Under the pieces are notes generated by a model. It ran no database searches. It saw only the letters and a list, made by a program, of their open reading frames with translations, and was not told the origin of the DNA. A DNA stretch of 44,816 nucleotides from Veterinaerplatzvirus T145P1. The DNA is taken from the sequence record OZ035767.1; one strand, 5' to 3'. A program made the position numbers and the translations under genes. Within the stretch, counting starts at the first letter, position 1; every line of letters begins with the position of its first letter. This document shows positions 554 to 44,534 of this stretch, in pieces.

Positions 554-2119
554 ATGTCTTTAGTATGGGAAGAAATGACCATTCAGGAAAAGATGGCGGT
601 TAAGGCGATATCAGAACACAGCTTCGAGGGGTTTCTTCGCTGCTGGTTTTCAATAACGCAAGGCGAGCGATATATCCCTAACTGGCATCACAAATATCTA
701 TGCCGAATTATCGACGAGATTATTGCAGGTGAGCGCAAGGACACTATAATTAACATAGCGCCTGGTAGCGGGAAGACAGAGATCGCATCAATCCACTTCC
801 CGGCCTACTCGATGGTTAAGCTGAAGAAGGTGAGGAACCTTAACATCTCATTTGCTGACTCCCTGGTTAAGCGCAACTCTAAGCGCGTACGTGACCTTAT
901 CAAGTCTCAAGAATTTCAATCACTATGGCCTTGCAAGTTTGGCACATGCAAAGACGATGAACTTCAGGTTCTTGATGAGAGTGGCAGGGTTAGATTTGAG
1001 TCAATATCAAAGGCGGCTGGGGGTCAGATTACTGGTGCTCGAGGTGGTTATATAACAGAAACATATAGCGGAGCCGTTCTATTGGATGATTTTGACAAAC
1101 CCGCAGATATGCTTTCTCCGGTTTATCGAGCTAACAACCACGTAATGCTTAAGAACACAATTCGATCACGTCGCGCTAGCTCTGTAAAGGGAAAGGCAAC
1201 ACCAATTATCTCTATACAGCAGCGCCTGCACGTCAATGACTCAACCTGGTTCATGATGGAAGGCGGTATGGGCATCGAATTCGATTTAATTAAGATACCA
1301 GCGCTAGTTACCGATGATTACATCGATTCACTTCCTGACTGGATTAAAGATCAGTTTGCTGAGGACGTACTAAGCAGTGAATATATTGAGCGAGATGGAG
1401 TAAAGTACTACAGCTACTTTCCTAAAAAGGAATCCGTAAACGACCTGGTGGCAATGTGGGATAGTGACCCGTACACTTTCCTTAGCCAATATCAACAATG
1501 CCCAGTGGCTCTTGGCGGTAACCTGATTAACGTGGATTGGTTCCAGCGTCTTAGTGATACATTCAGGCCTCCAGCTAAGTACGATTACAGATTCATCACA
1601 TGCGATACTGCGATGACTACAAAGAGTTATAGTGACTTCTCCGTGCTTCAGTTATGGGGCTATAAGGATGCTAAGATTTACCTGATAGACCAGCGCAGGG
1701 GAAAATGGGAAGCACCAGAGTTGGAGGCTGAACTGCTGGACTTCGAGAAGAAATCAAGGGCAACCAGTCAGTCAGATGGTATCCTCAGAAGGATTATTAT
1801 CGAGAAGAAAGCGTCTGGTATCGGCCTGATTCAATCAGCTGGCAGGGTTATGCGAACACCGATAGAGCCATACGTACCGGATAACGACAAGCTGACTCGC
1901 GTAATGAGCGCATTGCCACAGATTAAGGCTGGTAATGTCGTTCTTCCAGAGTCTGCGCCGTGGCTAAACGGATTGCTTACTGAGGTTGCTGCTTTTACGG
2001 CAGATGATAGCCACAAACACGACGACCAGATTGACTGTCTAACTATGGCAATCAACCTGGTACTTAACATTGCGGACGACCCCAAAGCGCGACTAATGCG
2101 CATAGCGGGAATTAAATAG
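554..2119 (+). CDS. terminase large subunit (ATPase + nuclease)
   Basis: 521 aa; N-terminal P-loop-like GSGKTE, C-terminal acidic nuclease-like residues; first large gene of a packaging-head-tail module. Confidence 0.8.
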   Translation: MSLVWEEMTIQEKMAVKAISEHSFEGFLRCWFSITQGERYIPNWHHKYLCRIIDEIIAGERKDTIINIAPGSGKTEIASIHFPAYSMVKLKKVRNLNISFADSLVKRNSKRVRDLIKSQEFQSLWPCKFGTCKDDELQVLDESGRVRFESISKAAGGQITGARGGYITETYSGAVLLDDFDKPADMLSPVYRANNHVMLKNTIRSRRASSVKGKATPIISIQQRLHVNDSTWFMMEGGMGIEFDLIKIPALVTDDYIDSLPDWIKDQFAEDVLSSEYIERDGVKYYSYFPKKESVNDLVAMWDSDPYTFLSQYQQCPVALGGNLINVDWFQRLSDTFRPPAKYDYRFITCDTAMTTKSYSDFSVLQLWGYKDAKIYLIDQRRGKWEAPELEAELLDFEKKSRATSQSDGILRRIIIEKKASGIGLIQSAGRVMRTPIEPYVPDNDKLTRVMSALPQIKAGNVVLPESAPWLNGLLTEVAAFTADDSHKHDDQIDCLTMAINLVLNIADDPKARLMRIAGIK

Positions 2120-2162
2120 CACGAATTGCTAAACGCTAGAGCCACGGATGGCGTATAGTTAC
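2117..2162 (+). promoter_or_regulatory. conserved palindrome-promoter element, copy 1
   Basis: ATAGCACGAATTGCTAAA - 22 nt - TATAGTTA; terL stop TAG lies inside the palindrome. Confidence 0.6.
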
Positions 2163-7398: not shown

Positions 7399-7766
7399 AC
7401 TACAGCGAAATAGAATCAATCACTCGCGAAGGAATTAACTTCTTTAGTGATGCCAATGGCGTTTACGAGATGAGTACTGGCGCTGGATATGTTGAAATCG
7501 TTAACGGCGTTGAGGTTGAGTTTCCTTCGCAAACATTCCAGCTAAAGGGTTTGGTTCGAGAAATCAAGACTCGCGATATAGATGGTGAGTTTATCCATTT
7601 TGGCGATAAGCGCGGAATCTTCACAGCTCAGGTGGAAATTAAGCAGGGTTATCAGATTAAAGTTGATGGTGAGACTTTTGTTGTTGTTGATCCGCGACCA
7701 GTTAAACCAACTGGTACAGTGGTTGGTTACAGACCGATTCTTCGTAGGGTGGCTGCTTATGGCTAG
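7395..7766 (+). CDS. putative head-tail joining/closure protein
   Basis: Overlaps the stop of the upstream gene; synteny. Confidence 0.45.
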   Translation: MNYSEIESITREGINFFSDANGVYEMSTGAGYVEIVNGVEVEFPSQTFQLKGLVREIKTRDIDGEFIHFGDKRGIFTAQVEIKQGYQIKVDGETFVVVDPRPVKPTGTVVGYRPILRRVAAYG

Positions 7767-8196
7767 AAATATTGGAAGCGTCGCTACGTTTGAGAAATCT
7801 ATTACTGACTGGATTGACAGAGCAGATAAGGGATTTGAAATTGTGGTCGCTAATACGGTCACTAAAACAGCCAACGCAATTGTGGACCTTTCCCCTGTCG
7901 ACACTGGTAGATTCAAGGCTAACTGGCAAATTACCGCAAACTCACCAGCCCAGCAGTCTCTGAATGAGTACGATCAGACTGGCGGGCAGACAAAAACATA
8001 TCTCGCCAGACAAGCCAGAGCAGTAGCCAATTCAAAAGCCACTAGTGTTATTTATATTACTAACCGACTTGATTACGCAGCCGACCTTGAGTATGGAGCT
8101 TCAAATCAGGCTCCGTCTGGTGTTTTGGGCGTGGTGCAAGCGAGGCTTGGCAGGTATTTTCAAGAAGCAGTGGAGGAGGCTCGTCGTGCAATATGA
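7759..8196 (+). CDS. HK97 gp10-like tail component (neck)
   Basis: Start at ATG 7759; motif DTGRFKANW resembles the HK97 gp10-family signature. Confidence 0.55.
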   Translation: MARNIGSVATFEKSITDWIDRADKGFEIVVANTVTKTANAIVDLSPVDTGRFKANWQITANSPAQQSLNEYDQTGGQTKTYLARQARAVANSKATSVIYITNRLDYAADLEYGASNQAPSGVLGVVQARLGRYFQEAVEEARRAI

Positions 8197-8602: not shown

Positions 8603-9259
8603 ATGGCTCATCTCAGCAATGGCACGCAGGTCTTCGTAGAAGGCTCTCGCGGAGCTGCAATTGACGTAACTGCAATTTCTAACGCAGTTACCCCTGTTTT
8701 AACTGTATCTGACGCCTCTGGCTTGGTCGTTGGTGATTACTTGCTTTTCACCTCTTCTGCCTCAACTCTTCTGGCTGACAAGCAGGTTCGCGTAACTGCA
8801 ATCACTGATACGTCAGTAACCGTTGAAGGTATTGATACCTCCAGCACCACTAAGTTCCCTGCTGGTCTAACTGGTGAAGTTGTTAAAATTACTTCATGGT
8901 TCGAGGTTCCTTGTGTTCAGGACGTATCTACTGACGGCGGCGAACAGCAGTTCGTTAACTTCCAGTGCTTGTCAGATGACCGCGAACAGCAGATTCCGAC
9001 TTATAAATCTGCCGTAACAAACACCTTCACCTTTGCTCACGAGTACACTAACCCGGTTTATCCGGTTCTGCGTAACTACGACGAGTCTGGCCAGGTTGTT
9101 GCGATTCGTCTGTTCGTACCTCGCGCTCAGGAAATGCGTTTACAGTCCGGCACTATCGCTTTCAACGACACCCCTACCATTGGTGTTAACGAAATCGAAA
9201 CGGTATCCATCGCAGTATCCATTCGTGGGCGCCTATCCTCTGTGGCAGCAGAAGTTTAA
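8603..9259 (+). CDS. major tail protein
   Basis: 218 aa, followed by terminator, located upstream of G/GT chaperones and tape measure. Confidence 0.7.
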   Translation: MAHLSNGTQVFVEGSRGAAIDVTAISNAVTPVLTVSDASGLVVGDYLLFTSSASTLLADKQVRVTAITDTSVTVEGIDTSSTTKFPAGLTGEVVKITSWFEVPCVQDVSTDGGEQQFVNFQCLSDDREQQIPTYKSAVTNTFTFAHEYTNPVYPVLRNYDESGQVVAIRLFVPRAQEMRLQSGTIAFNDTPTIGVNEIETVSIAVSIRGRLSSVAAEV

Positions 9260-9265
9260 AGCACA

Positions 9266-9288
9266 AACCCTCTTCGGAGGGTTTTTTA
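9266..9288 (+). terminator. rho-independent terminator after major tail protein gene
   Basis: ACCCTC-TTCG-GAGGGT hairpin then T6. Confidence 0.75.
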
Positions 9289-9292
9289 TTGC

Positions 9293-9338
9293 ATAGCACT
9301 TTTTGCTAAAGCGGTTATTCAACTTTGCTGTATAGTTA
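9293..9338 (+). promoter_or_regulatory. conserved palindrome-promoter element, copy 2
   Basis: ATAGCACTTTTTGCTAAA - 22 nt - TATAGTTACC then CATCGAAACGAAA leader. Confidence 0.6.
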
Positions 9339-9369
9339 CCTCATCGAAACGAAATGAGAGATTAAAGAA

Positions 9370-9618
9370 ATGAATAACGTTAAAAACATCATCAAGCTCG
9401 CTGCGGTTCTGTTTGCTTTTTATGCGGTAGTTCAGATTGTAGACCCAACAGGTGAGGCTGATGCCAATAGCAAGGCAAACAAATATACTGTTGAATTTGC
9501 TAAGGCTGAGCGAGCATGTCAGGAGCTTGTAGGTGGCAAAGTTGACCAAATCATGAAATACGGCAAAGAGGTTTGTAAGGACTCGGCTGCTAAGATTGCA
9601 AAAGAAAACACTAAGTAA
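9370..9618 (+). CDS. small secreted/membrane protein (moron-like, own promoter)
   Basis: 82 aa with hydrophobic N-terminal signal-like segment; preceded by promoter-like element 9293-9338. Confidence 0.5.
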   Translation: MNNVKNIIKLAAVLFAFYAVVQIVDPTGEADANSKANKYTVEFAKAERACQELVGGKVDQIMKYGKEVCKDSAAKIAKENTK

Positions 9619-20546: not shown

Positions 20547-20594
20547 GTAATAATACAACCGTCAGTGCGGAATGTCTTTAGCTATTCGTGCTAT
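20547..20594 (-). promoter_or_regulatory. conserved palindrome-promoter element, copy 3 (minus strand)
   Basis: Reverse complement reads ATAGCACGAATAGCTAAA ... TATTATTAC ... CATCGAAACGAAAC upstream of the lipoprotein gene. Confidence 0.5.
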
Positions 20595-20692
20595 TGCATA
20601 CACGTAACCGATGTAACTAGATGTATACAATCTCATCCGCGGAAAATGATATACGCACTGTTACGCAAATTTACGCATTGGTTACATTAAAA

Positions 20693-20750
20693 TATCTATA
20701 TATATCAACCTTTTACTCTTATTATTATTATTATATATATTACTGTGTAT
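20693..20750. repeat. AT-rich repeat copy A with (TTA)n microsatellite
   Basis: ATCTATATATATCAACCTTTTACT-(TTA)n-TATATAT..ACTGTGTATA; near-identical to 39261-39326. Confidence 0.8.
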
Positions 20751-20852
20751 ATCATGTAACTACTTCTATAGAGTGTTCCGGTTATAATTTTAATATCATG
20801 TGGATTTATACAGTATTGCGCTGCAGCTATACCAATGCACCCTCAGCAATAA

Positions 20853-22415: not shown

Positions 22416-22880
22416 ATGAACAAAGATTGCTGGCAGACTCCTTTAGACTTATTCAAACCGATAGATGATAAATACAAATTCAAGGTTGACGTGTGCGCAA
22501 GCCAAGAAAACGCGCTTTGTAAATATTACTGGACTGTAGATGATGACTGCTTGCAACAGGATTGGGGAGATGATGGTGGTTTCGTTTGGTGCAATCCACC
22601 ATATAGCAATCCATTACCATTTGTTGAAAAGTGCCAGCAATACGGCTATGCGGTCATGCTATTGAATCAGGATACGTCAACAAAATGGGCTAAGATAGTC
22701 TTTGAAAAAGCATCAAAGGTTATACTTTTATCAGACAGGGTTAGGTTTATAAATCCAGTAACAATGGAGGTTGGTAAGTCAAATCCTAAATGCCAGATGA
22801 TTGTAGTTTTCGACAGGCGTAGCAATTCTGGAGTTGATATACGTTGGTGTTCAATAAAAGAAATTCATAAGCAAATTTAA
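22416..22880 (+). CDS. dam: DNA N6-adenine methyltransferase (phage Dam-type)
   Basis: Start ATG 22416 with RBS; NPPY catalytic motif (WCNPPYSN); small phage Dam architecture. Confidence 0.8.
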   Translation: MNKDCWQTPLDLFKPIDDKYKFKVDVCASQENALCKYYWTVDDDCLQQDWGDDGGFVWCNPPYSNPLPFVEKCQQYGYAVMLLNQDTSTKWAKIVFEKASKVILLSDRVRFINPVTMEVGKSNPKCQMIVVFDRRSNSGVDIRWCSIKEIHKQI

Positions 22881-22925
22881 ATAGCATGAATTGCTAAAGA
22901 CAAAACTAAAGGGTGTGGGTATGAT
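22881..22925 (+). promoter_or_regulatory. conserved palindrome-promoter element, copy 4
   Basis: ATAGCATGAATTGCTAAA - about 23 nt - TATGATTA; starts right at the methyltransferase stop. Confidence 0.5.
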
Positions 22926-26435: not shown

Positions 26436-26458
26436 TGTGTAGAGTCTCCATTTGTAAA

Positions 26459-26476
26459 ATAGCACGAATTGCTAAA
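26459..26476. promoter_or_regulatory. orphan copy of the palindrome (no canonical downstream -10 box)
   Basis: ATAGCACGAATTGCTAAA, 24 nt upstream of the minus-strand tail fibre start codon. Confidence 0.4.
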
Positions 26477-26499
26477 GTGGATTGTAGCATCTTTGAGTC

Positions 26500-27449: not shown

Positions 27450-27504
27450 AATTACCTCCATAAACAATAAAGGCACTATACATAATGCAAAGTGCCATTG
27501 TTTA

Positions 27505-27984
27505 TCAAATCGTGCTGTTTTGCTCTTTCTTCTTTTGGTTCTCTAATTTTATCTTGCGCCATGAACGACACTCTGGCTTAGTGGCTAATTCAGCCTCAGT
27601 GACGACTCGCAGCATATGGCGCTTTTTGCACCGAAGTGTCAGCGGTTTCCCGTTGCCGTCGAATTGCAGGTCTGGTCGGCAGAATGTAGCGCGAAAACCT
27701 TCTCCATTTCGCTTATAGTAGTTGTGAGAAAGTTGAGCCCCACGCGCAGAAATCATACCGCGCTTAAACCATTCTTCTACAGCCTGTGGTGTTACCTTTA
27801 ACTGCTTTGCGATATTCGCCTTTGTGCCGAAGAAATCAAGAACTATCTCTAGCCGCGCGCGTAGCCCGGCTCTTACTTCATCTTTTAAAACATAGTAGCC
27901 TGAAGGTCGTTTACGTTGCTTTTTGTCTTCGGTGCGGATGGTTCCGTTATTGCCGTTAATTGTTCGCTTGTCGACTGTATTCAT
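27505..27984 (-). CDS. HTH DNA-binding protein, putative transcriptional regulator
   Basis: 159 aa, basic; HTH-like segment TKANIAKQLKVTPQAVEEWF; divergent from helicase promoter element. Confidence 0.5.
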   Translation of the reverse strand: MNTVDKRTINGNNGTIRTEDKKQRKRPSGYYVLKDEVRAGLRARLEIVLDFFGTKANIAKQLKVTPQAVEEWFKRGMISARGAQLSHNYYKRNGEGFRATFCRPDLQFDGNGKPLTLRCKKRHMLRVVTEAELATKPECRSWRKIKLENQKKKEQNSTI

Positions 27985-27996
27985 TTCATTACCTCA

Positions 27997-28040
27997 ATAG
28001 CATTTTTTGTTAAAAGTCATCCTGATTTGATGGTATTATT
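27997..28040 (+). promoter_or_regulatory. conserved palindrome-promoter element (variant), helicase operon
   Basis: ATAGCATTTTTTGTTAAAA - about 21 nt - GATGGTATTATT; sits between divergent regulator and helicase genes. Confidence 0.5.
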
Positions 28041-28085
28041 GTACTCAATTAAACGCTACAAGACAATTTTTATAGGAATTTAGAT

Positions 28086-30080
28086 ATGTTGCCTATCGAG
28101 AAGCTGGTTGCAAATTTCGATAAAGAAAGAATCAAACAGATTCAGAAAGACTATCAGTTTGGAGAGATAACCCCTTACGAATTCCAGTGCGTGACATTTG
28201 ATGCAATCGGAAAGGCTATTGGCAAGTACGAGGCACCATTTATCGCAGACCTTTCAGTATCTGCGGGTAAGACAATCATTCTTGCCATGATTGGTAAGCG
28301 CATGGAGCAGCTTGGGCTTCCCTATATGGTTCTCTCTCGCCAGTCAGAGATTATCAGCCAGAACTCAGAAGAGCTTCGTAATTTCGGCATACGTAATAGC
28401 GTCTATTGCGCTGGCCTTAACGTCAAATCAGTTTACTACCCAACTATAGTGGCCAGCGAGGGTACGGCAGCCAACGGCTTGTTTAAGGGGCTTGGTGACT
28501 ATGTTCCGGCAGTTATCGCTATAGATGAGTGTCACATGGTCGATCACATGGATATCGTGGAGGCTGAAGAGAATGAAGAAACATTTGAGCAAATGAGCAC
28601 AAAGAAAGGCGATATGGTTTTTAAGGATGGCGTAAACACAGGATTGCTTGGTACTGGTCGTGCGCAGTACACGCTAATTATCACCGAGATGAAACGTCGT
28701 TGTCGTGAGAAGTACGGGCGTGAGCTTCGTATATTCGGTCTTACTGGCAGCCCGTATCGTAACAACGATCATATCGTCGTTAGCAACCCAAACATCCGTG
28801 GATTCTGGCGCAAAACAGTGATTCAGGTGCCAACAAATTATCTGGTTGATTTGGGCTTCGTTGTTCCTACTGTTTATGGTGAAGTTGGTGACCTGGGTTA
28901 TGACCTTAGTGAGTTTGCGCCAGACGGAAGCGATGGCGTTAAAGACTTCAGCAAGAAAGAAATGGATGCAATGGCTGCAAAGATTCACGACAACCAATCA
29001 ATGACCCAAAAGATAATGGGTTTTGTTGTGAAAATACTCGAGACTCGTAACGCTGCATTGGTAACATGCGCTGGCAAACTCCATTGTGATGAGGCTGCTG
29101 CGGCACTACCAGATGGATACCCTTACGCCATCATCACAGACTCTACGGGAGAGAGGAAGCGCAGGGAGATTCTGGCTGATTGCCAGACAGGTAAGTACAA
29201 AATAATATTCCAGATTGGTTGTCTTACTACGGGCGTAAACCAGCCGCTGTGGGATACTAGCGTCATACTACGCAAGATTGGCAGCCTAACGCTTATGATT
29301 CAGCTTCTTGGTAGGGGGATGCGCAAACTTAATAGATCTCATATTGATGCTGGTTTTCATAAAGAAGATCACCTTGTGCTGGATTTTGCTGGCGCACTTG
29401 ATGATATGGCTGAGCTTTACTTTGACCCAATTATTGAAGAGATTCAGGCTGAGAAGTTTAAATCCTCAAGAAAAGGTGGCGATGAGGTTCGTCAGTGTCC
29501 GCAATGTGGATATGAAAATTCCCCATTCGCTCGTCGCTGTAGCAATAAGATTGATGGCGTTAGATGCGATCACTTCTTTCAGTTCACAATTTGCGAAGAC
29601 ATTACCGACGCGCAAACTAAATCGGTAATTAAAAAGGGTTGTGGCGCTCGCAATGACATAGCAGCAAAGGTTTGCAGGGAATGCGGCGAGATGCTTAAAG
29701 ACCCAAATGCTAACCTGACTGGCAAAATGTATCGTCGTGGTGATTACCTTCGTGTTTATGATTTTCAAGTTGGGTTAAGTAAGAATCAGACAGGCATTGT
29801 AGTTAAGTACAATATAATGGCTCATAACGGAGAGAGATTTAACGCTTGGGAGTTCTTTAATCCAGAATCAGACCATCGAGTTTGCAGTGTGCTCTGGAAG
29901 AACTTTTGCTTAGCTCATATTGAGAATCGCACGGAAGCGGCACGAATTGGCAGGCTTAAAAATGCCAGAATGATTATGACTAACGTAGATAAGTTCCGTG
30001 CGCCAGTTCAGGTTACGCATCGCCGGAATGCAAAAGGAAAGGACGTGATAGCGTTTAAGAATTTTGGAGAATTATTATGA
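28086..30080 (+). CDS. SF2 DNA helicase with C-terminal zinc-ribbon
   Basis: Walker A-like SAGKT, DECH box, QLLGRGMR motif VI, CPQCG...CRECG zinc ribbons. Confidence 0.8.
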   Translation: MLPIEKLVANFDKERIKQIQKDYQFGEITPYEFQCVTFDAIGKAIGKYEAPFIADLSVSAGKTIILAMIGKRMEQLGLPYMVLSRQSEIISQNSEELRNFGIRNSVYCAGLNVKSVYYPTIVASEGTAANGLFKGLGDYVPAVIAIDECHMVDHMDIVEAEENEETFEQMSTKKGDMVFKDGVNTGLLGTGRAQYTLIITEMKRRCREKYGRELRIFGLTGSPYRNNDHIVVSNPNIRGFWRKTVIQVPTNYLVDLGFVVPTVYGEVGDLGYDLSEFAPDGSDGVKDFSKKEMDAMAAKIHDNQSMTQKIMGFVVKILETRNAALVTCAGKLHCDEAAAALPDGYPYAIITDSTGERKRREILADCQTGKYKIIFQIGCLTTGVNQPLWDTSVILRKIGSLTLMIQLLGRGMRKLNRSHIDAGFHKEDHLVLDFAGALDDMAELYFDPIIEEIQAEKFKSSRKGGDEVRQCPQCGYENSPFARRCSNKIDGVRCDHFFQFTICEDITDAQTKSVIKKGCGARNDIAAKVCRECGEMLKDPNANLTGKMYRRGDYLRVYDFQVGLSKNQTGIVVKYNIMAHNGERFNAWEFFNPESDHRVCSVLWKNFCLAHIENRTEAARIGRLKNARMIMTNVDKFRAPVQVTHRRNAKGKDVIAFKNFGELL

Positions 30081-30496
30081 AGATTACAGATAAAGAAGAT
30101 TACATTGAGTTTTACCCGGGTCCGGTTAAGTCATGCCCTAAAGAGGATGACGAACAAATCTTTTGCTCTGATTGGGTTAAGTATAACTACCCAGATATGG
30201 TATTTTTCCATTGCGTGAATGAGGGAAAGAAAACCATTGGTCAAGCAAGAAAAGACCAGGCTAAGGGGCTTCTAAAAGGCGTATCAGACTGTATGTTTCT
30301 TATTCCTGAATCACTTCGAGGTAAGTATCCTTTCGGAGCTATAGAGCTAAAGAGGGCTGGCAAAACTCAAGCAAGTCCAGTCAGCGAAGAACAGAAGGCA
30401 TTCCTGAAAAGTGTAATGGAATCAGGCGGTTTCTCGGCAGTCGCCTACGGACGTGAGGGTTTTCTTGCAGCATTCAAAGAAATGATTTCAAAATAG
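30077..30496 (+). CDS. VRR-NUC domain nuclease
   Basis: 139 aa with PD-(D/E)XK-like D...ELK core; ATGA-coupled to helicase. Confidence 0.6.
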   Translation: MKITDKEDYIEFYPGPVKSCPKEDDEQIFCSDWVKYNYPDMVFFHCVNEGKKTIGQARKDQAKGLLKGVSDCMFLIPESLRGKYPFGAIELKRAGKTQASPVSEEQKAFLKSVMESGGFSAVAYGREGFLAAFKEMISK

Positions 30497-30538
30497 CACG
30501 AATTGCTAAAGGCGATTTTAAAAGATGGGGTATAGTTA
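30493..30538 (+). promoter_or_regulatory. conserved palindrome-promoter element
   Basis: ATAGCACGAATTGCTAAA - 22 nt - TATAGTTACTCCATCGAAACGAAAC; VRR-NUC stop TAG inside palindrome. Confidence 0.6.
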
Positions 30539-30572
30539 CTCCATCGAAACGAAACACAAAGAGAGAAATAAA

Positions 30573-30773
30573 ATGGCTACTATCTACACTGGAAAATTCT
30601 ACGAATCACGCAAAACTGGTTACGAATATGAGTTGGTCATCACAGAAGATGGTTACATCCTCATTGATGTAATGGATGGAGATTACTCTTTCGAAGTTAG
30701 CCCTAGCTACAAAGATGATTTAGAAACTGTTAAAAACGAATTTGGCGAAAAATTTGATGAGGTATCAGAATGA
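30573..30773 (+). CDS. hypothetical protein
   Basis: Start ATG 30573 after promoter-like element and RBS. Confidence 0.5.
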   Translation: MATIYTGKFYESRKTGYEYELVITEDGYILIDVMDGDYSFEVSPSYKDDLETVKNEFGEKFDEVSE

Positions 30774-31149: not shown

Positions 31150-31346
31150 TTAATAATAGACCGTTCGTTGTTACGTTTAAGCCAAGAAACAACACCCCAC
31201 GGATGGATATTGATGAGTACCTTCTAAAGCGCGGGAATAGCTATTTTGTTCTTGAAATTTCCGCAGACTCAGATAGATACATCGTTAAAAACGATGCGGG
31301 TATTGTTGTTAGTGTTTCAAAATTAGATGTGGAGATTGTGAGATGA
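31146..31346 (+). CDS. hypothetical protein
   Basis: Start moved to ATG 31146 (RBS GGAGGA, ATGA overlap). Confidence 0.45.
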   Translation: MINNRPFVVTFKPRNNTPRMDIDEYLLKRGNSYFVLEISADSDRYIVKNDAGIVVSVSKLDVEIVR

Positions 31347-31537
31347 TTAATGCAACTTGTGTAAAAGCAAATGGTTTCTTTACTCTACTTGAAGATTACG
31401 AAATTATCTTTAATTCAGATGGCGCAATAACAGTATTGAGCGATAATGGATGCTATTGGTTCGTTAGTTATCAAGGTGACGGGTATTACGGGTGTAGAGA
31501 TTCGAATGGAAAAGAAGTTAGCTTCTTAGTTGAATAG
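31343..31537 (+). CDS. hypothetical protein
   Basis: 64 aa, ATGA overlap; stop embedded in promoter element. Confidence 0.5.
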   Translation: MINATCVKANGFFTLLEDYEIIFNSDGAITVLSDNGCYWFVSYQGDGYYGCRDSNGKEVSFLVE

Positions 31538-31578
31538 CACTTTTTGTTAAAACTCAAATCCACGTATGGATTATATTA
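31534..31578 (+). promoter_or_regulatory. conserved palindrome-promoter element (variant)
   Basis: ATAGCACTTTTTGTTAAA - about 21 nt - TATATTA. Confidence 0.5.
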
Positions 31579-32315: not shown

Positions 32316-33446
32316 ATGGCAACCGCAAAAATCACCAACGAACAATTGCGCGAAGAGTTAGCAAATGGCATGACCAACAAGGCAATCGCAGAGAAGTACG
32401 GAATGAACATTCGCAACGTTGAATTGCGTCGCAGTAAATTAGCTAAACAAGGCGAAGGGCATGGTCGCGATGTAAGCAACTTAATCCCTCAGGGCTATGC
32501 AGTTAAAGGCGTCTCCAGCTTAATTGGTGCTGATGGCGAGATTAAGCAACAGTGGGTTAAATCAGATATCGACAAGGAGAAGCAAGAAGAGATGATGCTT
32601 CAGGCAATTCAGGCCCTAACTGATGAGTTGCCGCGTGAGAAAGCTAAAGCTTTAAGGGTTGGTTTATGGGAAGATACTTTAAGCCTTTACCCCGTGTTCG
32701 ACCTCCACATTGGAGCAATGGCTCATCATGCTGAGTGTGGTGAGAACTATAGTACTGAAATCGCTGAGAGAGTTCTTAATGATTACTTTGATTACGCGGT
32801 TGCAAAGGCCCCCAACTCCAAGAAAGCTGTATTGCTGATTGGGGGTGACTTCCTTCACTCTGACGGAATGGAAGCGGTAACACCAACCAGTCGTCATGTT
32901 CTTGATCAAGATAGCCGTTATCACAAACTTGTTTACGTAGCAGTGCGATCGACACGTCGAGCAATTAGCCGCATGCTTGATAAGCACGCCGAGGTTGAGG
33001 TTCAGATTATTCCAGGTAACCACGATCTCTCAGGTATGATTTGGCTTCGTGCTGCAATGGCAGCTTTCTATATGGATGAGCCTCGAGTTAATGTTGATGC
33101 GTCCCCCGCTGCGCTTCACGTAACGCAATTTGGGAAGACGCTGCTTGGTTACTGCCATGGGCACGAACTCAAAAAGCCTGATACCCGACTATCAGCACTG
33201 GCTCGTGACCATCGCAAAGCATTTGGTGAATCAGAGTATGTTTACACCCATTCAGGCCACTATCACCATCAAACTATTACGGAAGGAAATCTGGGTATTG
33301 ATGAATCACACGGCCAGCTTGGAGCGAAAGATGCGTACAGTGCTAACGGAGGTTATCGCTCTTACCGACAGGCTTCGGTGATAATTTATAGTCCTGAGTT
33401 TGGTGAGATTGGACGATTTACTTGCCGCCCGGAAATGTTTAGTTAA
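32316..33446 (+). CDS. calcineurin-like metallophosphoesterase with N-terminal HTH-like domain
   Basis: GDFLHSD, GNHD, GH motifs characteristic of metallophosphatases; N-terminal segment resembles sigma-70 region-4-type HTH. Confidence 0.6.
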   Translation: MATAKITNEQLREELANGMTNKAIAEKYGMNIRNVELRRSKLAKQGEGHGRDVSNLIPQGYAVKGVSSLIGADGEIKQQWVKSDIDKEKQEEMMLQAIQALTDELPREKAKALRVGLWEDTLSLYPVFDLHIGAMAHHAECGENYSTEIAERVLNDYFDYAVAKAPNSKKAVLLIGGDFLHSDGMEAVTPTSRHVLDQDSRYHKLVYVAVRSTRRAISRMLDKHAEVEVQIIPGNHDLSGMIWLRAAMAAFYMDEPRVNVDASPAALHVTQFGKTLLGYCHGHELKKPDTRLSALARDHRKAFGESEYVYTHSGHYHHQTITEGNLGIDESHGQLGAKDAYSANGGYRSYRQASVIIYSPEFGEIGRFTCRPEMFS

Positions 33447-33491
33447 TAGCACTTTTTGCCTAACGCATGCCGTAGAAATGCGGCATAATTA
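33446..33491 (+). promoter_or_regulatory. conserved palindrome-promoter element (variant)
   Basis: ATAGCACTTTTTGCCTAA - 22 nt - CATAATTACCACATCGAAACGAGA. Confidence 0.55.
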
Positions 33492-36931: not shown

Positions 36932-37117
36932 TACTTCTCTCCGTGTTGTTTCTGAGCGGCCATTATAACAACGACCGCTTATAAAGCATTATCAATTTGT
37001 GCTATTAATTGTTCTTAATCCACTTTAGACACATCCACAATCCAGCCCCATAGAATGCAATCTTGAGAACTTCAGCTAAGACAAGGATAATAAAGTATCC
37101 ACCACCAAGTAAATCAA

Positions 37118-37746: not shown

Positions 37747-37790
37747 TAACTATACATTGAAAGCCCCGAAGGGCTTTAGCAATTAGTGCT
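37747..37790 (-). promoter_or_regulatory. conserved palindrome-promoter element (minus strand)
   Basis: Reverse complement: AGCACTAATTGCTAAA - 22 nt containing a GC hairpin - TATAGTTA, then CGAAACGAAACGAAAC leader. Confidence 0.6.
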
Positions 37791-37937
37791 GTTTCGTGCT
37801 TTCTCTATCGCCTTGAGCATAATCTCGTGACTTTCCAGTAAGTCCTCTCGGAACCAATCTCCACAAGGCCAGCCTTTTCCGCTATAGGCACTTATGACCT
37901 CGAGATCGAAATAATTTATCTCAGATGGTAATAGCAT
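37776..37937 (-). CDS. hypothetical small protein
   Basis: 53-aa ORF, ATGA-coupled; stop codon lies inside the palindromic element. Confidence 0.35.
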   Translation of the reverse strand: MLLPSEINYFDLEVISAYSGKGWPCGDWFREDLLESHEIMLKAIEKARNSTNC

Positions 37938-38179
37938 CACTTCACCTCATCAAAAGTTGCAATCCCAGGAATAAACATCCCAACCTTCCAGCCTGCAATG
38001 GCAATCCATCCAGAATCGTGCTTGTGCGGTCGCTCAGCGCCATTAATCACCCATTCGTTCGGGATTGTCTTGCCGTTAATGATTAGAGGCTCAGCGTCGT
38101 ATACAGAGCCTTTAACGAATGGTGTTAAGGCTTTCTTGTCAGTGCTATTGATAACGTTAGTGCAGATTATTTTAGTCAT
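37937..38179 (-). CDS. hypothetical protein
   Basis: 80 aa. Confidence 0.5.
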   Translation of the reverse strand: MTKIICTNVINSTDKKALTPFVKGSVYDAEPLIINGKTIPNEWVINGAERPHKHDSGWIAIAGWKVGMFIPGIATFDEVK

Positions 38180-38926: not shown

Positions 38927-38973
38927 TAAGTATACGCATAGTTAGCCACACTGTCTTTAGCAAAAAGTGCTAT
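38927..38973 (-). promoter_or_regulatory. conserved palindrome-promoter element (minus strand)
   Basis: Reverse complement: ATAGCACTTTTTGCTAAA - about 23 nt - TATACTTA. Confidence 0.5.
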
Positions 38974-38987
38974 TCGTTAGATTTATG

Positions 38988-39075
38988 TATTGTTGCAGAT
39001 ATTGCAATGATTCACTTGATTATTGCACATACAGCAATATTGCTTCCGATGCAATGATGTTTTTGATTGTTGCGA
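38988..39075. repeat. cluster of ATTGCA/TGCAAT half-sites and short palindromes
   Basis: ATTGCAAT (39001-39008), AGCAATATTGCT (39033-39044), plus repeated TTGCA/GCAAT units in the divergent control region. Confidence 0.6.
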
Positions 39076-39260
39076 AAAGTGAAATTAAGTGGTGAGTGAG
39101 TGAATGAAAGATGGATGGACTACCATACAAGTTGATTTTTACCAATCTATGGGAGCCTCACGGATATACGCGTATCCTCCGTATACTCAGTGTCGTCACA
39201 AAAGTTAGTGACCACTAACCTACGTTTTTACGCGATATATACACACGATATACAATATAA

Positions 39261-39326
39261 TATCTATATATATCAACCTTTTACTTTATTATTATTATTA
39301 TTATTATATATATGTATACTGTGTAT
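39261..39326. repeat. AT-rich repeat copy B with longer (TTA)n microsatellite
   Basis: Same unit as 20693-20750 with about two extra TTA triplets. Confidence 0.8.
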
Positions 39327-39533
39327 ACCGGTAATTGGTGAGATTATTGATATGTTCCGCGCAGATATTCTGACACCTGTCAGAAATGGATGGCATTGTA
39401 GGAATAAAAGGCACATATATAGGGAATGGCTTCAAAAATCTGTACACATCGGATACGGCACATTTACAACCAGCAATGGAGGGGCCTCTGGAGGCAAGAA
39501 GCGTATCCATGATAAAATAGACGAAAATATACA

Positions 39534-39602: not shown

Positions 39603-40151
39603 ATGCAGAAAGTAACACTAGGTGAAGTTATCCGTGAGATGGTGCGCAACGCGATGGTGTCCGAGAGTGGTGAGTTTAAAGTTCCGGTTAGCCAGATATT
39701 CAAACTGGTTCGAGGCAAGGAATACCCTGAAATGGTGTATGACGAAGATACTAGTGAGATCCTCAACCTGGCAGATAGGGCGATGCCGGAACTAAAGAAC
39801 TCATACATCTATAACACAGTGTCGAGAATGACAGAGCTTCGCGATGCTAATAAGCGAGCGAGATATAAGTTCATCTGGATTGATGATGACGGAGAGCAAA
39901 CAAGGCCCGGTAGCTTCGACGGTGATGGCGCTGATAAATACCTGGTCATATACATTGAGAACGGCGCGCACTGGACTGGGAGTCGCGAAAAGAAAAAGCA
40001 GGAAGCGGAGAAAGAGGCGGCTATCATTGAAAAGTTCAAGTCTAGACTGCTCAAGCTGTCACCAAGTGTTGCTGGCTTGGAAGGTGAAGAACTTAAGGGC
40101 GCTGTTACAATGATTAATGCTTATCAGGAAATGATTAAGGAGACTAAGTAG
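39603..40151 (+). CDS. hypothetical early protein
   Basis: 182 aa, RBS GAGGT; first gene downstream of early promoter region. Confidence 0.55.
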   Translation: MQKVTLGEVIREMVRNAMVSESGEFKVPVSQIFKLVRGKEYPEMVYDEDTSEILNLADRAMPELKNSYIYNTVSRMTELRDANKRARYKFIWIDDDGEQTRPGSFDGDGADKYLVIYIENGAHWTGSREKKKQEAEKEAAIIEKFKSRLLKLSPSVAGLEGEELKGAVTMINAYQEMIKETK

Positions 40152-40241
40152 TAGACTACCATACCACTTGCGGTACAGCGAGGAAGAGGTTGAGGTGGCC
40201 ATTGAGTTCTATCGGAAAGCTAAATCACTACTGAATGGTAA

Positions 40242-40287
40242 ATAGCACTTTTTGCCTAACGCGGTAATGCCATGGATGGCATAATAG
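40242..40287 (+). promoter_or_regulatory. conserved palindrome-promoter element (variant)
   Basis: ATAGCACTTTTTGCCTAA - 22 nt - CATAATAGCCTCATCGAAACGAGA. Confidence 0.55.
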
Positions 40288-40323: not shown

Positions 40324-40542
40324 ATGAGCAAGACAATCACGCTGCAATGCCTTAAGACAAATAACCCAGAGTTCTTAAAAGGTCACAAATATGTGGCAAC
40401 CCTGGTGGATGGGAAAACATGGGCGGTTAAGGGTGGATTCCAGGATTACAAATTCCCACTTGAGCACATACCTGGCGGAAACCTTGGTTTTGTTAGTGAC
40501 TGCCGCTCAGTTAAGTTTGTTTTTGAGGTTGTAATGAAATAG
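40324..40542 (+). CDS. hypothetical protein
   Basis: 72 aa, own promoter-like element. Confidence 0.5.
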   Translation: MSKTITLQCLKTNNPEFLKGHKYVATLVDGKTWAVKGGFQDYKFPLEHIPGGNLGFVSDCRSVKFVFEVVMK

Positions 40543-40582
40543 CAATAATTGCTAAATCTTCCGCAAGGCCATTTGATATAGT
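40539..40582 (+). promoter_or_regulatory. conserved palindrome-promoter element (perfect palindrome AGCAAT-A-ATTGCT)
   Basis: ATAGCAATAATTGCTAAA - 22 nt - TATAGT. Confidence 0.55.
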
Positions 40583-40623
40583 GGCCTTGTTGAAGCAAAA
40601 CAACCAATCACGAGGTATAAATT

Positions 40624-41101: not shown

Positions 41102-41305
41102 ATGGAAAATATTCGTATTGAAGATGTTCACTTTGACCAAGCTGAGGTCGGAATCACAAAAAGCGCTCGCGGAGACGTTGTATATCTGGACTTTAATCCG
41201 GATGACTACGGGGACGGCCAGATGCTGATGCACTACAGTCCTGATAAGGCGCGCAAATTGGCGGCAGCATTAATCCTGGCGGCGGAGGAGGTGGAGAAGC
41301 AATGA
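41102..41305 (+). CDS. hypothetical protein (paralogue of 40624-40851)
   Basis: Start moved to second ATG (41102) for RBS spacing. Confidence 0.5.
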   Translation: MENIRIEDVHFDQAEVGITKSARGDVVYLDFNPDDYGDGQMLMHYSPDKARKLAAALILAAEEVEKQ

Positions 41306-41562
41306 AACGTTTAATGAAATGCATGACTATTATTGCGGCAATGATTGCTCTTACTGGTTGCGAGAAGGCACCTGAGGTTCAGATTCAGTCAGGTGAATTC
41401 AATGTGGAGCGCCTATTCACAGTGGATGGATGTACCGCCTACCGATTCCGAGATAGCGATAGAGCCATCTACTACACAAATTGCAATGGCAGTACGCAGA
41501 GTGAGTACAGGCACGGCAGGGCCATGAGACAAGAAACAGTTCAGACAGATCGCACTAATTGA
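41302..41562 (+). CDS. putative lipoprotein
   Basis: Signal peptide with lipobox LTGC; ATGA overlap. Confidence 0.5.
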   Translation: MKRLMKCMTIIAAMIALTGCEKAPEVQIQSGEFNVERLFTVDGCTAYRFRDSDRAIYYTNCNGSTQSEYRHGRAMRQETVQTDRTN

Positions 41563-41745
41563 TAAAAGGGGATCCATCCTGACTGGTATAATCCCCAGCA
41601 TCAACCACATGAATGGAAGTTAAGTGACGATATACGAACATAAATTCAGTAGCAGGGGTATTGATATGCTCCTGCGCTATGTAGACGAAAAATACGCAAA
41701 TCTCATGCTTAAGACGCATGGCGGCACAATAACGAGGATTGAGAT

Positions 41746-42075
41746 ATGAGTAAATACGATCGCAAGATTATTGGCATTGATGGCACAGTAACAACAGTAG
41801 ATGTTTATCGTGTTCTTGATGCGTTTGGCGTATCTGACCCAGCCACTCAGCATGCGGTAAAGAAGATGCTTTGCACTGGCCTGCGTGGACACAAGGATTA
41901 CTTAACTGACCTTAATGACTCCATTGAGTCACTACAGAAGGCTAAAGAGATTTACTGGCAGAAGATGATTCATGAATCCGATAAAATCACTGATTCAATT
42001 TTAAATCCACCAAAAGAAGCGAGATTTAGTACTGCTAATGGTTCAGAATTCACTTTCGGAAAGGTTAGAGTCTAA
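41746..42075 (+). CDS. hypothetical protein
   Basis: 109 aa. Confidence 0.5.
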   Translation: MSKYDRKIIGIDGTVTTVDVYRVLDAFGVSDPATQHAVKKMLCTGLRGHKDYLTDLNDSIESLQKAKEIYWQKMIHESDKITDSILNPPKEARFSTANGSEFTFGKVRV

Positions 42076-42122
42076 ATAGCACGAATTGCTAAACCCGCTC
42101 CTGCGGGTTTTGTTATAGTTAG
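42076..42122 (+). promoter_or_regulatory. conserved palindrome-promoter element
   Basis: ATAGCACGAATTGCTAAA - 22 nt containing hairpin CCCGC..GCGGG - TATAGTTA. Confidence 0.6.
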
Positions 42123-42240: not shown

Positions 42241-42455
42241 TTACAATTAACCTGTCAGAAAAGCAAGCAGCAGAACTCAAGTGCATGCTGTCAATCTTTG
42301 AGAAGACAAATGACCGAGCAATTGCAAAAGAGGTCACGACTCAAATCAACAACCAGCAGTTCGACGTCAGTGACTTCGAGTCGTCACGGCAGTACGAAGC
42401 ATTAAGCGTCAACGCTGCATACCTGGCTAACTGGGATAAGGCAACGAAGAAATGA
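42237..42455 (+). CDS. hypothetical protein
   Basis: 72 aa. Confidence 0.5.
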
Positions 42456-42589
42456 TTTACATCCACACGTACTACACTGGTAAGTTTAATAGCGTCAAAC
42501 ATGTCCGTGTTCACGATAACTACGAGAGCGCAAAAGCTCAATGGTTGGTTCTTGGTGGTGACATTAATTCATACAGAGTTGCTGAGTAG
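42452..42589 (+). CDS. hypothetical small protein
   Basis: 45-aa ORF, ATGA overlap; stop TAG embedded in palindromic element. Confidence 0.35.
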   Translation: MIYIHTYYTGKFNSVKHVRVHDNYESAKAQWLVLGGDINSYRVAE

Positions 42590-42632
42590 CACTAATTGCT
42601 AAAACAGTATTGGGGTAATTTGTTATAGTTAC
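42586..42632 (+). promoter_or_regulatory. conserved palindrome-promoter element
   Basis: GTAGCACTAATTGCTAAA - 22 nt - TATAGTTACCCCATCGAAACGAGAGAGG. Confidence 0.6.
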
Positions 42633-42659
42633 CCCATCGAAACGAGAGAGGAATAAGAA

Positions 42660-43181: not shown

Positions 43182-43326
43182 CACTTGCATTTATTTTTAT
43201 GGCCATGAATTTATTGATGACTTAATGTACTTTCACGAAAAGTATGGCGACACATTCGAATGCGATGGTGACAATCTTGAGGTTCTAGCGACATTCAATA
43301 GGGGTGGCAAAAATGAGTTTCACTGA
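43174..43326 (+). CDS. hypothetical small protein
   Basis: 50-aa ORF, overlapping. Confidence 0.3.
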   Translation: MINTCIYFYGHEFIDDLMYFHEKYGDTFECDGDNLEVLATFNRGGKNEFH

Positions 43327-43456
43327 ATATGTTATCGCATGTGAACGACTGGTCTTTGATATGAAGACTTTTCACTGGTTCATAATTAAGGATTTAGTTA
43401 AGCCTTATAAGAAAGGTGTTATGCCAGAGCAGTTTGTTAAGTCGTTCTACAAATAG
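43313..43456 (+). CDS. hypothetical small protein
   Basis: 47-aa ORF; stop TAG embedded in palindromic element. Confidence 0.3.
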   Translation: MSFTEYVIACERLVFDMKTFHWFIIKDLVKPYKKGVMPEQFVKSFYK

Positions 43457-43498
43457 CACGAATTGATAAACCAGATCGCCACGGATGGCATATAATCA
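43453..43498 (+). promoter_or_regulatory. conserved palindrome-promoter element (variant)
   Basis: ATAGCACGAATTGATAAA - 22 nt - TATAATCACC. Confidence 0.55.
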
Positions 43499-43529
43499 CC
43501 ATATCAATACAACGAGAGAGATAAAGCAA

Positions 43530-43727
43530 ATGAACAACAAATCAAATGAAGTGACAAAGGTTAAATCACATATCGCAGAAAATAATTATGATGAGTCTTT
43601 GGATTTAGGTTTCAATTCAAGAAAAGTAGTTGTTAACGGAATCATGGGTTTTCATTCTCGCTGCGTTATGGCTAAACCAGTTATTGGCTTTGAGTCTCGA
43701 TGCGTCTTTGTTGGTGGAGTCTTATAA
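43530..43727 (+). CDS. hypothetical protein
   Basis: Start moved to ATG 43530 after RBS. Confidence 0.45.
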   Translation: MNNKSNEVTKVKSHIAENNYDESLDLGFNSRKVVVNGIMGFHSRCVMAKPVIGFESRCVFVGGVL

Positions 43728-44457: not shown

Positions 44458-44534
44458 GCTCGAGTGGCGAAAGTGGATATCGCAAGAGACTTCTAATCTC
44501 TAGATTGCTGGTTCGAATCCAGCCTCGAGCGCCA
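44458..44534 (+). tRNA. tRNA-Arg (anticodon UCU), CCA encoded
   Basis: Hand-folded cloverleaf with all four stems fully Watson-Crick paired (7/4/5/5 bp); U8, A14, G18G19, U33; anticodon loop CUUCUAA; T-loop TTCGAAT; discriminator G then CCA. Confidence 0.9.

Follow-up and report, generated by a model that had tools for sequence, protein, structure and literature searches.

T1-like phages of the family Drexlerviridae carry a short directional repeat ahead of many of their genes, and the present analysis concerns this repeat in a 44.8-kb stretch of phage DNA (sequence record OZ035767.1; the whole stretch is referred to below as the window), where its copies repeatedly contain the stop codon of the gene that precedes them. 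The closest described system is that of phage TLS, the 2024 re-annotation of which reported a 21-nucleotide (nt) direct repeat with the consensus aaATAGCACnnnTTGnTAAAA (PMC11447400). Its 21 copies, 18 of them intergenic, run with transcription about 76 nt 5' of start codons and are divided into A, T, and G subclasses by their central triplet; the authors noted similar repeats in T1, Rtp, and Rogue1 and left the function of the repeat between a stoperator, an enhancer site, and an UP-like element (PMC11447400). According to our analysis, the element of the window shares with the TLS direct repeats the consensus, the copy number (18 to 21), the orientation, the distance to the start codon, and the A/T/G subclasses; it displays every defining feature and is this already published T1-like direct repeat. 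The matters treated here, that is, stop codons, a fixed 22-nt distance to a -10 hexamer, hairpins in the spacer, and a Cro-like regulator, are instead absent from the TLS paper (PMC11447400), in the text of which the term "stop codon" has no match.

The T1 genome has been described in terms of "transcriptons," modules that have promoters and are delimited by rho-independent terminators (Roberts et al. 2004, as summarized in PMC11447400). As in the window, terminator hairpins lie right at the promoters of these modules, whereas in the summary available the terminators are not tied to a repeat or to stop codons (PMC11447400). Other T1-like genome papers relied on generic promoter predictors only, and in one of them "phage-specific promoters" are named in a figure. 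The stoperators of L5 and other Cluster A phages (Brown et al. 1997, as cited in PMC11447400) resemble the element of the window in being many short asymmetric sites of one orientation located in the very short intergenic spaces of a compact genome. However, they are repressor roadblocks of temperate phages and have no -10 hexamer at a fixed distance, whereas the phage of the window is virulent, its element has promoter geometry, and the sequences are unrelated. The fixed -10 hexamer 22 nt downstream led us to reject assignment to the L5 type of stoperator, and the annotations of the relatives, which are virulent T1-like phages, contain no integrase or immunity repressor.

Promoters that lack a -35 hexamer, depend on an activator, and carry a dyad near -42 are known from Mu Pm with Mor, the Mu late promoters with C, the class II promoters of CRP and FNR, and lambda PRM with cI at OR2. 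The promoters of the window resemble them in having a -10 without a -35 hexamer, a dyad over the -35 region, and a fixed helical position; a dimeric helix-turn-helix (HTH) activator able to repress from other positions, as found in those systems, is also what we propose for the window. The candidate regulator of the window is nevertheless not homologous to Mor/C or CRP, and for it we infer start site, binding, and activation. For Rtp, Wietzorrek and colleagues are said to have proposed in 2006, in the abstract of the genome report, that ten conserved inverted repeats are sites of the putative regulator Rtp52, which would reportedly amount to the same dyad and the same candidate protein as in the window. 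T1-like phages have neither a polymerase nor a sigma factor of their own with which to time their transcription.

The window belongs to a T1-like siphophage of the Drexlerviridae. It shares 98.9% identity with Veterinaerplatzvirus T145P1; with ACG-M12, SU57, and Rtp-like coliphages, the identity is about 87%. Its gene list (66 genes) is our own curation of open reading frames (ORFs) by synteny and PHROG matches and not the deposited annotation. Elements were sought by scanning for TAGCACnnnTTGCTAAA with few mismatches allowed and then with a weight matrix, which yielded 19 good copies. With coordinates and offsets counted from the T of TAGCAC, 14 copies are on the plus strand (2117, 9294, 22882, 26460, 27998, 30494, 31535, 33447, 40243, 40540, 41550, 42077, 42587, and 43454) and five on the minus strand (38972, 37791, 37004, 27517, and 20593). 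T1 has 21 copies (0.54 expected), Rtp 20 (0.72 expected), ACG-M12 20, and Motto 18. As a literal string, AAATAGCAC occurs six times in the window against 0.64 expected, two of these occurrences (26457 and 40240) being at places where no gene ends, and, when up to one mismatch is allowed, TAGCA-N5-TGCTA has 17 occurrences where 1.8 would be expected. The original prediction described the element as palindromic, which holds for its core, the dyad TAGCA-N5-TGCTA of 15 base pairs (bp) (TAGCACGAATTGCTA at 2117-2131 in copy 1), but not for the element as a whole, aaATAGCACnnnTTGCTAAAa, which is a directional, promoter-associated repeat of 20 to 21 nt. It is directional because the flanks of the dyad are asymmetric, with AA to the left and AAAA to the right, a C following TAGCA, and TT preceding GCTA, and an information content of at least 1.2 bits is reached at A-2, A-1, TAGCAC, TTG, and TAAA. 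All copies except the orphan at 26460 (18 of 19) are co-oriented with the next gene, and the distance from the T of the element to the next ATG is 68 to 88 nt in the window.

Eight junctions had been singled out at which the stop codon of the upstream gene would form the first half of the palindrome. All eight are present in the sequence as cited, whereas in four of them the stop lies outside the first half-site. The TAG of the element serves as the stop codon in four (TerL, VRR-NUC, and the ORFs ending at 42589 and 43456); three genes use a TAA in the A-rich 5' flank (methyltransferase, -4; exonuclease, -3; the ORF ending at 42075, -4), and at the single minus-strand junction the stop is the TAA contained in GCTAAA, the 3' half (offset +13). 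To these we add four junctions, those of ORFs 31343..31537 and 40324..40542 (both TAG), ORF 41302..41562 (TGA, +10), and the regulator gene 27505..27984(-) (TGA, +10), and overall 12 of the 66 genes of the window stop at -4 to +13 of one of the 19 copies on the same strand. Random global placement predicts 0.25 stops in elements (P of about 1e-16), and when each element was jittered by ±60 nt, an average of 1.9 resulted, the highest value in 20,000 trials being 8. Ten of the upstream ORFs were compared with PHROGs, namely, seven of the cited ones (all but TerL) and three of the four added here; each of the ten has a match to a PHROG family, in most cases through to the C terminus of the profile, and they are therefore real genes with real C termini. 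TerL and the regulator gene were identified separately, by other evidence. The copies and the stops that they hold are as follows.

Copy 1, 2115..2159 (+): element 2115-2134, 22-nt spacer, -10 TATAGT at 2154-2159, next gene at 2191; TAG 2117-2119 (+) is the stop of TerL (ORF 554..2119)
Copy 2, 9292..9336 (+): -10 TATAGT at 9331-9336, after the terminator of the major tail gene (9265-9284), next gene at 9370; no real gene ends here (ORF 9033..9296 crosses the terminator and is judged spurious)
Copy 3, 22878..22925 (+): element 22880-22899 (TAGCAT), -10 TATGAT at 22920-22925, next gene Erf at 22955; TAA 22878-22880 (+), offset -4, is the stop of the methyltransferase
Copy 4, the orphan, 26458..26477 (+): no -10 downstream and no plus-strand gene
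Copy 5, 27996..28039 (+): element 27996-28015, -10 TATTAT at 28034-28039 for the helicase gene (28086)
Copy 6, 30492..30536 (+): -10 TATAGT at 30531-30536, enclosed by a hairpin, next gene probably at 30573; TAG 30494-30496 (+) is the stop of VRR-NUC (ORF 30077..30496)
Copy 7, 31533..31577 (+): TAG 31535-31537 is the stop of ORF 31343..31537 (phrog_3249); -10 TATATT
Copy 8, 33444..33489 (+): -10 CATAAT at 33484-33489, GC hairpin in the spacer; the exonuclease ORF 32316..33446 ends at TAA 33444-33446 (-3), followed by the in-frame element TAG 33447-33449
Copy 9, 40241..40285 (+): -10 CATAAT; no gene end inside, TAG kept
Copy 10, 40538..40606 (+): TAG 40540-40542 is the stop of ORF 40324..40542; -10 TATAGT at 40577-40582 (+), within a strong hairpin (-21.5 kcal/mol)
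Copy 11, 41548..41592 (+): TCGCAC variant entered by ORF 41302..41562, with TGA at 41560-41562 (+10); -10 TATAAT
Copy 12, 42073..42119 (+): TAA 42073-42075 (-4) is the stop of ORF 41746..42075; -10 TATAGT at 42114-42119
Copy 13, 42585..42629 (+): TAG 42587-42589 is the stop of ORF 42452..42589 (phrog_3955); -10 TATAGT in a hairpin
Copy 14, 43452..43496 (+): TAG 43454-43456 is the stop of ORF 43304..43456 (phrog_22596); -10 TATAAT
Copy 15, 38929..38974 (-): opens the leftward operon as its first promoter; TAG kept, no gene upstream; -10 TATACT
Copy 16, 37749..37793 (-): CAGCAC, GC hairpin GCCCTTCGGGGC at 37774-37763 in the spacer, -10 TATAGT at 37754-37749; ORF 37776..37940(-) ends at the TAA of GCTAAA, 37778-37776, offset +13
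Copy 17, 36962..37007 (-): -10 TATAAT in a hairpin; an unverified 38-codon ORF with TAA at -3 was left out of the counts
Copy 18, 27475..27519 (-): CAGCAC, in the 3' end of the regulator gene, -10 TATAGT at 27480-27475 for the primase gene; TGA 27507-27505, offset +10, is the stop of the regulator gene 27505..27984(-)
Copy 19, 20550..20595 (-): divergent-region promoter for leftward lipoprotein and membrane genes, no upstream gene, TAG kept; -10 TATTAT

None of the six copies without a co-directional upstream gene (9294, 26460, 27998, 40243, 38972, and 20593) lacks the TAG, which is therefore deemed a triplet of the motif that genes borrow, not a designed stop module; the notion of a cassette with a built-in stop is not supported on this point, TAG being kept equally where no gene precedes. 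Two frames are closed by the core itself, through TAG at 0 and TAA at +13, while the third is closed only where a T precedes the AAA flank (TAAATAG). Among the embedded stops, frame 0 is strongly preferred (42:13:8), and TATAGT is commoner at junctions that use the element TAG (odds ratio, 4.1; P = 0.004; relatedness uncorrected), in both of which statistics orthologous junctions are counted several times. The -10 hexamer is located at +37, and its TAG or TAA at +39 (to +41, e.g., 2156-2158) is in frame with the element TAG as an arithmetic consequence of the 22-nt spacing; this is the next in-frame stop, 13 codons on, at 19 of 36 frame-0 junctions. The frame-0 bias could reflect selection, which could be directed against the addition of four motif-encoded residues to the protein.

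The stop-in-element arrangement was followed in the deposited annotations of T1, Rtp, ACG-M12, and "Pseudomonas" phage Motto together with the curated list of the window (380 genes, 96 elements). The upstream gene has its stop in 63 of the 96 elements, at offsets 0 (30 elements), +13 (10), -3 (9), -4 (8), +10 (3), +6 (2), and -6 (1), and the element's own TAG accounts for 31 of all 47 TAG stops. Conservation in related phages, which the original prediction had proposed as a check, is thus borne out across five Drexlerviridae genomes, and the arrangement is real, non-random, old, and family-wide. The original observation is correct and even stronger than it was taken to be; its interpretation is supported in part. 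At the VRR-NUC junction, the stop lies in the element in six of seven diverse relatives, including a metagenomic contig whose regulator is 37% identical, and in all 11 IMG/VR loci, in two of which the TAG arises from the variant GAATAGCTAAA. In Vibrio phage Vc1, TAG has become AAG in the element (7494-7478) at the end of VRR-NUC (7420-7812, minus strand), and the gene as called continues through the whole promoter and ends just before the start of the Dam gene, which we read, from the sequence, as a natural loss of the embedded stop.

The word "promoter" in the original prediction proves well founded. In an alignment of 57 element copies from three genomes, on which the promoter geometry and the hairpin statistics are based, the spacer between TTGCTA and a -10 hexamer is exactly 22 nt in 44 copies and 21 to 23 nt in 54, and a -10 match of at least 5/6 is found at that distance in 48 copies, compared with 1% of random positions. 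The commonest hexamers are TATAGT, CATAAT, and TATAAT. That the element always bears a promoter applies to most copies but not to the one at 26460, which is without any. No -35 hexamer occurs at 16 to 18 nt from the -10 in the aligned copies because the CTAAAn end of the element fills that position, and only some of the element promoters carry a TGn extension. The window shows no excess of consensus sigma70 promoters (16 against 21.8, 25 against 29.3, and 31 against 31.7 expected), and the TLS authors likewise found none (PMC11447400). A conserved C-A pair lies 6 to 7 nt after the -10 hexamer and is followed by an A/C-rich leader, CATCGAAACGA. If transcription begins at the conserved A, the dyad would extend from about -49 to -35, with its center near -42 and its half-sites one helical turn apart.

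The leader CATCGAAACGA is found at the predicted start site, 6 to 20 nt past the -10 (e.g., 9343-9353, 30543-30553, and 42636-42646), in most copies and also in ACG-M12, Rtp, T1, and Motto, and might be the initially transcribed sequence, enhance translation, or mark a processing site. Another short dyad, CCAYGKATGG, is located just 5' of the -10 hexamer in some spacers (2143-2153, 43480-43490, 40269-40279, and 31561-31571) and occurs as well in ACG-M12 (2748, 5967, and 37205) and Rtp (4028, 8426, and 38479). The longest ORFs 3' of copies 6 and 14 (30525-30773 and 43485-43727) would begin inside the promoter, and ATGs preceded by a Shine-Dalgarno sequence at 30573 and 43530 are probably the real starts.

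Three other promoter types were considered and rejected. A sigma54 promoter (TGGCAC-N5-TTGC) differs from TAGCAC-N3-TTGC, which has AG instead of GG at -24/-25 and a spacing two bases too short. TTGCTA cannot serve as a sigma70 -35 hexamer with a 22-nt spacer and no -10 at 16 to 18 nt. As for the MotA box of T4, (a/t)3TGCTTtA centered at -30, the distance to the -10 is 11 to 13 bp, whereas TTGCTAAA ends 20 nt before it; no MotA/AsiA-like annotation is present in the records of the relatives, in which no search aimed at homology was made.

The two GC hairpins that had been predicted in the spacers of copies 12 and 16 are both there. The former, CCCGCTCCTGCGGG at 42091-42110, is followed by the T-run TTTTGTT, scores as terminator-like, and has the features of an intrinsic terminator, while GCCCTTCGGGGC of copy 16 has a stem with four GC pairs and a weak T-run. 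More generally, the 42-nt segment that begins where the element ends and reaches 13 nt beyond the -10 folds with a mean z of -2.5 relative to shuffled sequences (z < -2 in 31 of 57), and its mean folding energy is -9.0 kcal/mol compared with -6.0 kcal/mol for random 42-mers (P = 7e-5). In the window, hairpins enclose the -10 hexamer in copies 3, 6, 10, 11, 13, 17, and 18 and are located within the spacer in some others. At the VRR-NUC junction of five divergent phages, a small and hand-picked sample, a 6-bp stem pairs in all cells of the comparison (slid controls, 20 to 37%), with compensatory changes in three of six pairs and several G-U pairs, which favor pairing in the sense-strand RNA, i.e., in read-through transcripts of the upstream gene. 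The terminators deposited for T1 at 38973-39001, 39998-40024, and 41980-42007 also fall in the spacers between element and -10. With hairpins that are enriched and covarying and T1 GenBank terminators in the same spacers, terminator-promoter punctuation is a fair description. Beyond copies 12 and 16, most spacer hairpins have no T-run and may protect 3' ends instead.

The best candidate for a protein that reads the element is encoded in the window itself:

27505..27984 (-): Cro/XRE-like HTH regulator of 159 amino acids, homologue of T1 gp23 and Rtp52
28038..28066 (-): promoter of the regulator gene, of canonical sigma70 type (TTGTCT, 17 nt, TACAAT); T1 has TTGAAT-17-TATAAT in the same place

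The regulator has a sub-threshold match to P22_Cro and a match to phrog_2856 ("transcriptional regulator"); its AlphaFold model is confident (pLDDT, the predicted local distance difference test score, 89.5) and shows a Cro-like fold, and the GenBank note on rtp52 predicts an HTH. Homologues are found in 824 phage records, every checked one of which is T1-like, and the named hosts are overwhelmingly enterobacterial. The most conserved part of the protein is not the HTH but a basic N-terminal arm (residues 5 to 27, predicted to be disordered), DKRTINGNNGTRRG.DKK.RKR, which is invariant in homologues down to 37% identity; the C-terminal part is also conserved. The regulator is the only DNA-binding protein that could be recognized; a Pfam scan of ten other early proteins detected no DNA-binding domain.

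Near an element, no sigma70 promoter other than that of the regulator gene is clearly canonical. This gene and the helicase gene lie back to back (27985-28085) with their promoters face to face and their -10 hexamers overlapping (TATTAT 28034-28039 on the plus strand for the helicase gene and TACAAT 28044-28039 on the minus strand for the regulator gene). Copy 5, the element of which is invariant in five genomes, would be at about -42 for the helicase promoter and is at the same time inside the regulator leader, a layout that looks like an autoregulatory switch. The orphan at 26460-26476, viewed on the minus strand, coincides with the start site predicted for an extended -10 promoter, TGcTACAAT (TG 26489-26488, TACAAT 26486-26481), in the tail-fiber leader between the primase terminator and the tail-fiber gene; this arrangement is kept in ACG-M12 and Rtp, and in T1 with TGaTAAAAT. 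By their predicted placement, copies 4 and 5 are in repressor-type positions and the other 17 in an activator-type position with rigid spacing.

The reading that we favor, to which we assign a probability of about 0.6, is a composite one, in which the element would be the operator of -35-less promoters, with the Cro-like regulator as the candidate binder, combined with terminating hairpins and borrowed stops. The dyad TAGCA-N5-TGCTA would be bound by a dimeric protein that touches RNA polymerase near -42 of sigma70-type promoters lacking a -35 hexamer, and the best candidate for this protein is the Cro-like HTH regulator of the family. Bound at -42, it would activate about 17 promoters, and bound 3' of the start site, in its own leader and in that of the tail-fiber gene, it would repress. 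The hairpins in the spacer or around the -10 would form in read-through RNA and would end or protect the upstream transcript, a step that would give the punctuation of stop, terminator, and promoter. Between a stop and the next start there is hardly more room than element, spacer, -10, leader, and Shine-Dalgarno sequence require; there are no spare bases between gene and promoter, so that upstream genes abut the element and use its triplets. Compaction would have left them with the motif's own TAG (0) or TAA (+13) or with a TAA accommodated in the A-rich flank. The simplest reading of the stop-codon overlap is then genome compaction around a known element, with stops that are borrowed and not designed; it is apparently an unreported detail that calls for no new mechanism or new kind of system. 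A more far-reaching version, which we offer only tentatively, is that T1-like phages run almost their whole transcription program via one operator. The regulator with the arm DKRTINGNNGTRRG, expressed from the sole canonical sigma70 promoter, would activate about 17 -35-less promoters at -42 and repress its own and the tail-fiber genes, the operator would double as stop and as 5' flank of the terminator hairpin, and the frame-0 bias and the backup stop would be selected.

Several points weigh against the composite reading. Elements also precede small "early-looking" genes, and a simple early-to-late activator switch is not obvious. The searchable literature holds no transcription-start, footprint, or expression data for any T1-like phage (Drexlerviridae), and the position at -42 rests on an inferred start. 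The frame-0 bias (42:13:8) exceeds what simple stop loss would give, although the counts are not phylogenetically independent. Above all, the DNA motif does not vary between phages of Escherichia coli, Vibrio phage Vc1, and a metagenomic contig, while the regulator is 37 to 50% identical and its predicted recognition helix begins with varying residues (TPQ, SNQ, PYV, CCV, and NPL); no covariation signal for regulator and site can arise, the motif being unchanged in the most divergent homologues (Vc1 and the 37%-identical metagenomic one). A conserved host factor or RNA polymerase would explain this invariance at least as well; alternatively, about 20 sites per genome perhaps freeze the specificity, read by the invariant arm. 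We nonetheless regard it as unlikely that host machinery reads the element, be it RNA polymerase, with a -35 substitute or UP-type site, or a conserved host DNA-binding protein; the use of stops would still be incidental in that case. The motif stays constant in Escherichia, Klebsiella, Vibrio, and "Pseudomonas" phages across the divergence of regulator and recognition helix, and the rigid 22-nt spacing fits direct polymerase contact; an UP-like element is also among the options of the TLS authors (PMC11447400). However, the element contains GC and is dyad symmetric, unlike A/T-rich UP elements, its TTGCTA is 22 nt from the -10, too far for region 4 of sigma70, and the orphan and regulator-leader copies without promoter geometry are better explained by a separate DNA-binding protein. 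For the host protein Lrp, we take YAGHAWATTWTDCTR to be the consensus from systematic evolution of ligands by exponential enrichment, and its outer pentamers TAGCA...TGCTA with a 5-bp gap fit the dyad; from this assumed consensus, T-class copies deviate by two mismatches and G-class copies by three, and matches to the pattern in the window are not above chance (9 against 11.6 expected), so that Lrp is retained as no more than a lead. E. coli reportedly has only one such repeat, as the Rtp genome abstract is said to state, which we count against a host reader.

A purely negative element, i.e., a stoperator or Cro operator at which the regulator shuts promoters or blocks elongation while the -10 promoters work alone, appears distinctly improbable. 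The Cro-like fold and the two copies 3' of predicted start sites would suit it, as would the many copies of one orientation in short intergenic spaces, an analogy with the L5 stoperators that the TLS authors drew (PMC11447400). Promoters without a -35 hexamer, only some of which have TGn, should nonetheless be weak unaided, a repressor site needs no rigid 22-nt spacing to a -10, and the window of this virulent phage contains no lysogeny module. We give still less credence to the idea that the embedded stop is itself selected, either as a portable module junction for recombination or through an interaction of terminating ribosomes with operator or terminator. The preference for frame 0, the second in-frame stop at +39, and the tie between TATAGT and frame-0 use agree with it, and breakpoints of homology lie near elements in 16 of 102 cases against 4.4 expected at random positions; yet the latter enrichment vanishes when other gene boundaries serve as reference (12 of 19 against 21 of 46 junctions; P = 0.28), orthologous junctions are counted repeatedly in the frame and TATAGT statistics, the +39 stop is arithmetic, and the TAG is equally kept where no gene precedes. 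On the same comparison, in which the ends of high-scoring segment pairs with four relatives were not enriched over other gene boundaries, a role of the elements as mosaic recombination junctions found no support. Chance or an artifact of ORF calling, finally, can scarcely account for the arrangement. One spurious ORF (9033..9296) does end in an element, and the 38-codon ORF of copy 17 is unverified, but the global P value is about 1e-16, none of the 20,000 local jitters reaches 12, each of the ten upstream ORFs tested has a PHROG family, and the deposited annotations of T1, Rtp, ACG-M12, and Motto show the same arrangement.

Some further observations concern individual parts of the window. Copy 10 belongs to a block of about 70 bp (40537-40606) that consists of the repeat, a long hairpin around the -10, and then TTGAAGCA; it recurs with about 90% identity in Klebsiella phages (Webervirus) as well as in T1-, Sfin-, and SH2-like ones that otherwise have no DNA similarity to the window. 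It is also present at T1 3536 and Motto 46556, and T1 4865 and 47116(-) look like diverged copies. Both large divergent intergenic regions contain one copy each of an AT-rich repeat (20683-20758 and 39251-39334), with a 35-nt core that is 94% identical, followed by TTATTATTATTATTAT. Each copy has a sigma70-like pair, TTTACT with TATATT or TATTAT, and these repeats may be early promoters or a feature related to the origin or pac. The sole match of an Rfam scan was a tRNA, which is tRNA-Arg (anticodon TCT) at 44458-44534, as in related T1-like phages.

T1-like phages are the least understood of the classic T phages, and the present analysis sharpens the published description of their repeat into a testable promoter model, with a fixed 22-nt distance to the -10, no -35 hexamer, a predicted dyad center at -42, a candidate regulator with its own canonical promoter, and two repressor-type sites. 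It is also of use for annotation. In the Drexlerviridae, a gene that reaches the repeat ends there, and two thirds of the amber stops are bases of the motif; ORFs called as starting within the 45-nt promoter are wrong (e.g., 30525 and 43485), and overcalls of 5' ends may occur in automatic annotation. The stop-codon overlap itself is an example of the multiple use of sequence in a compact genome and a pointer to a putative promoter class in a classic phage.

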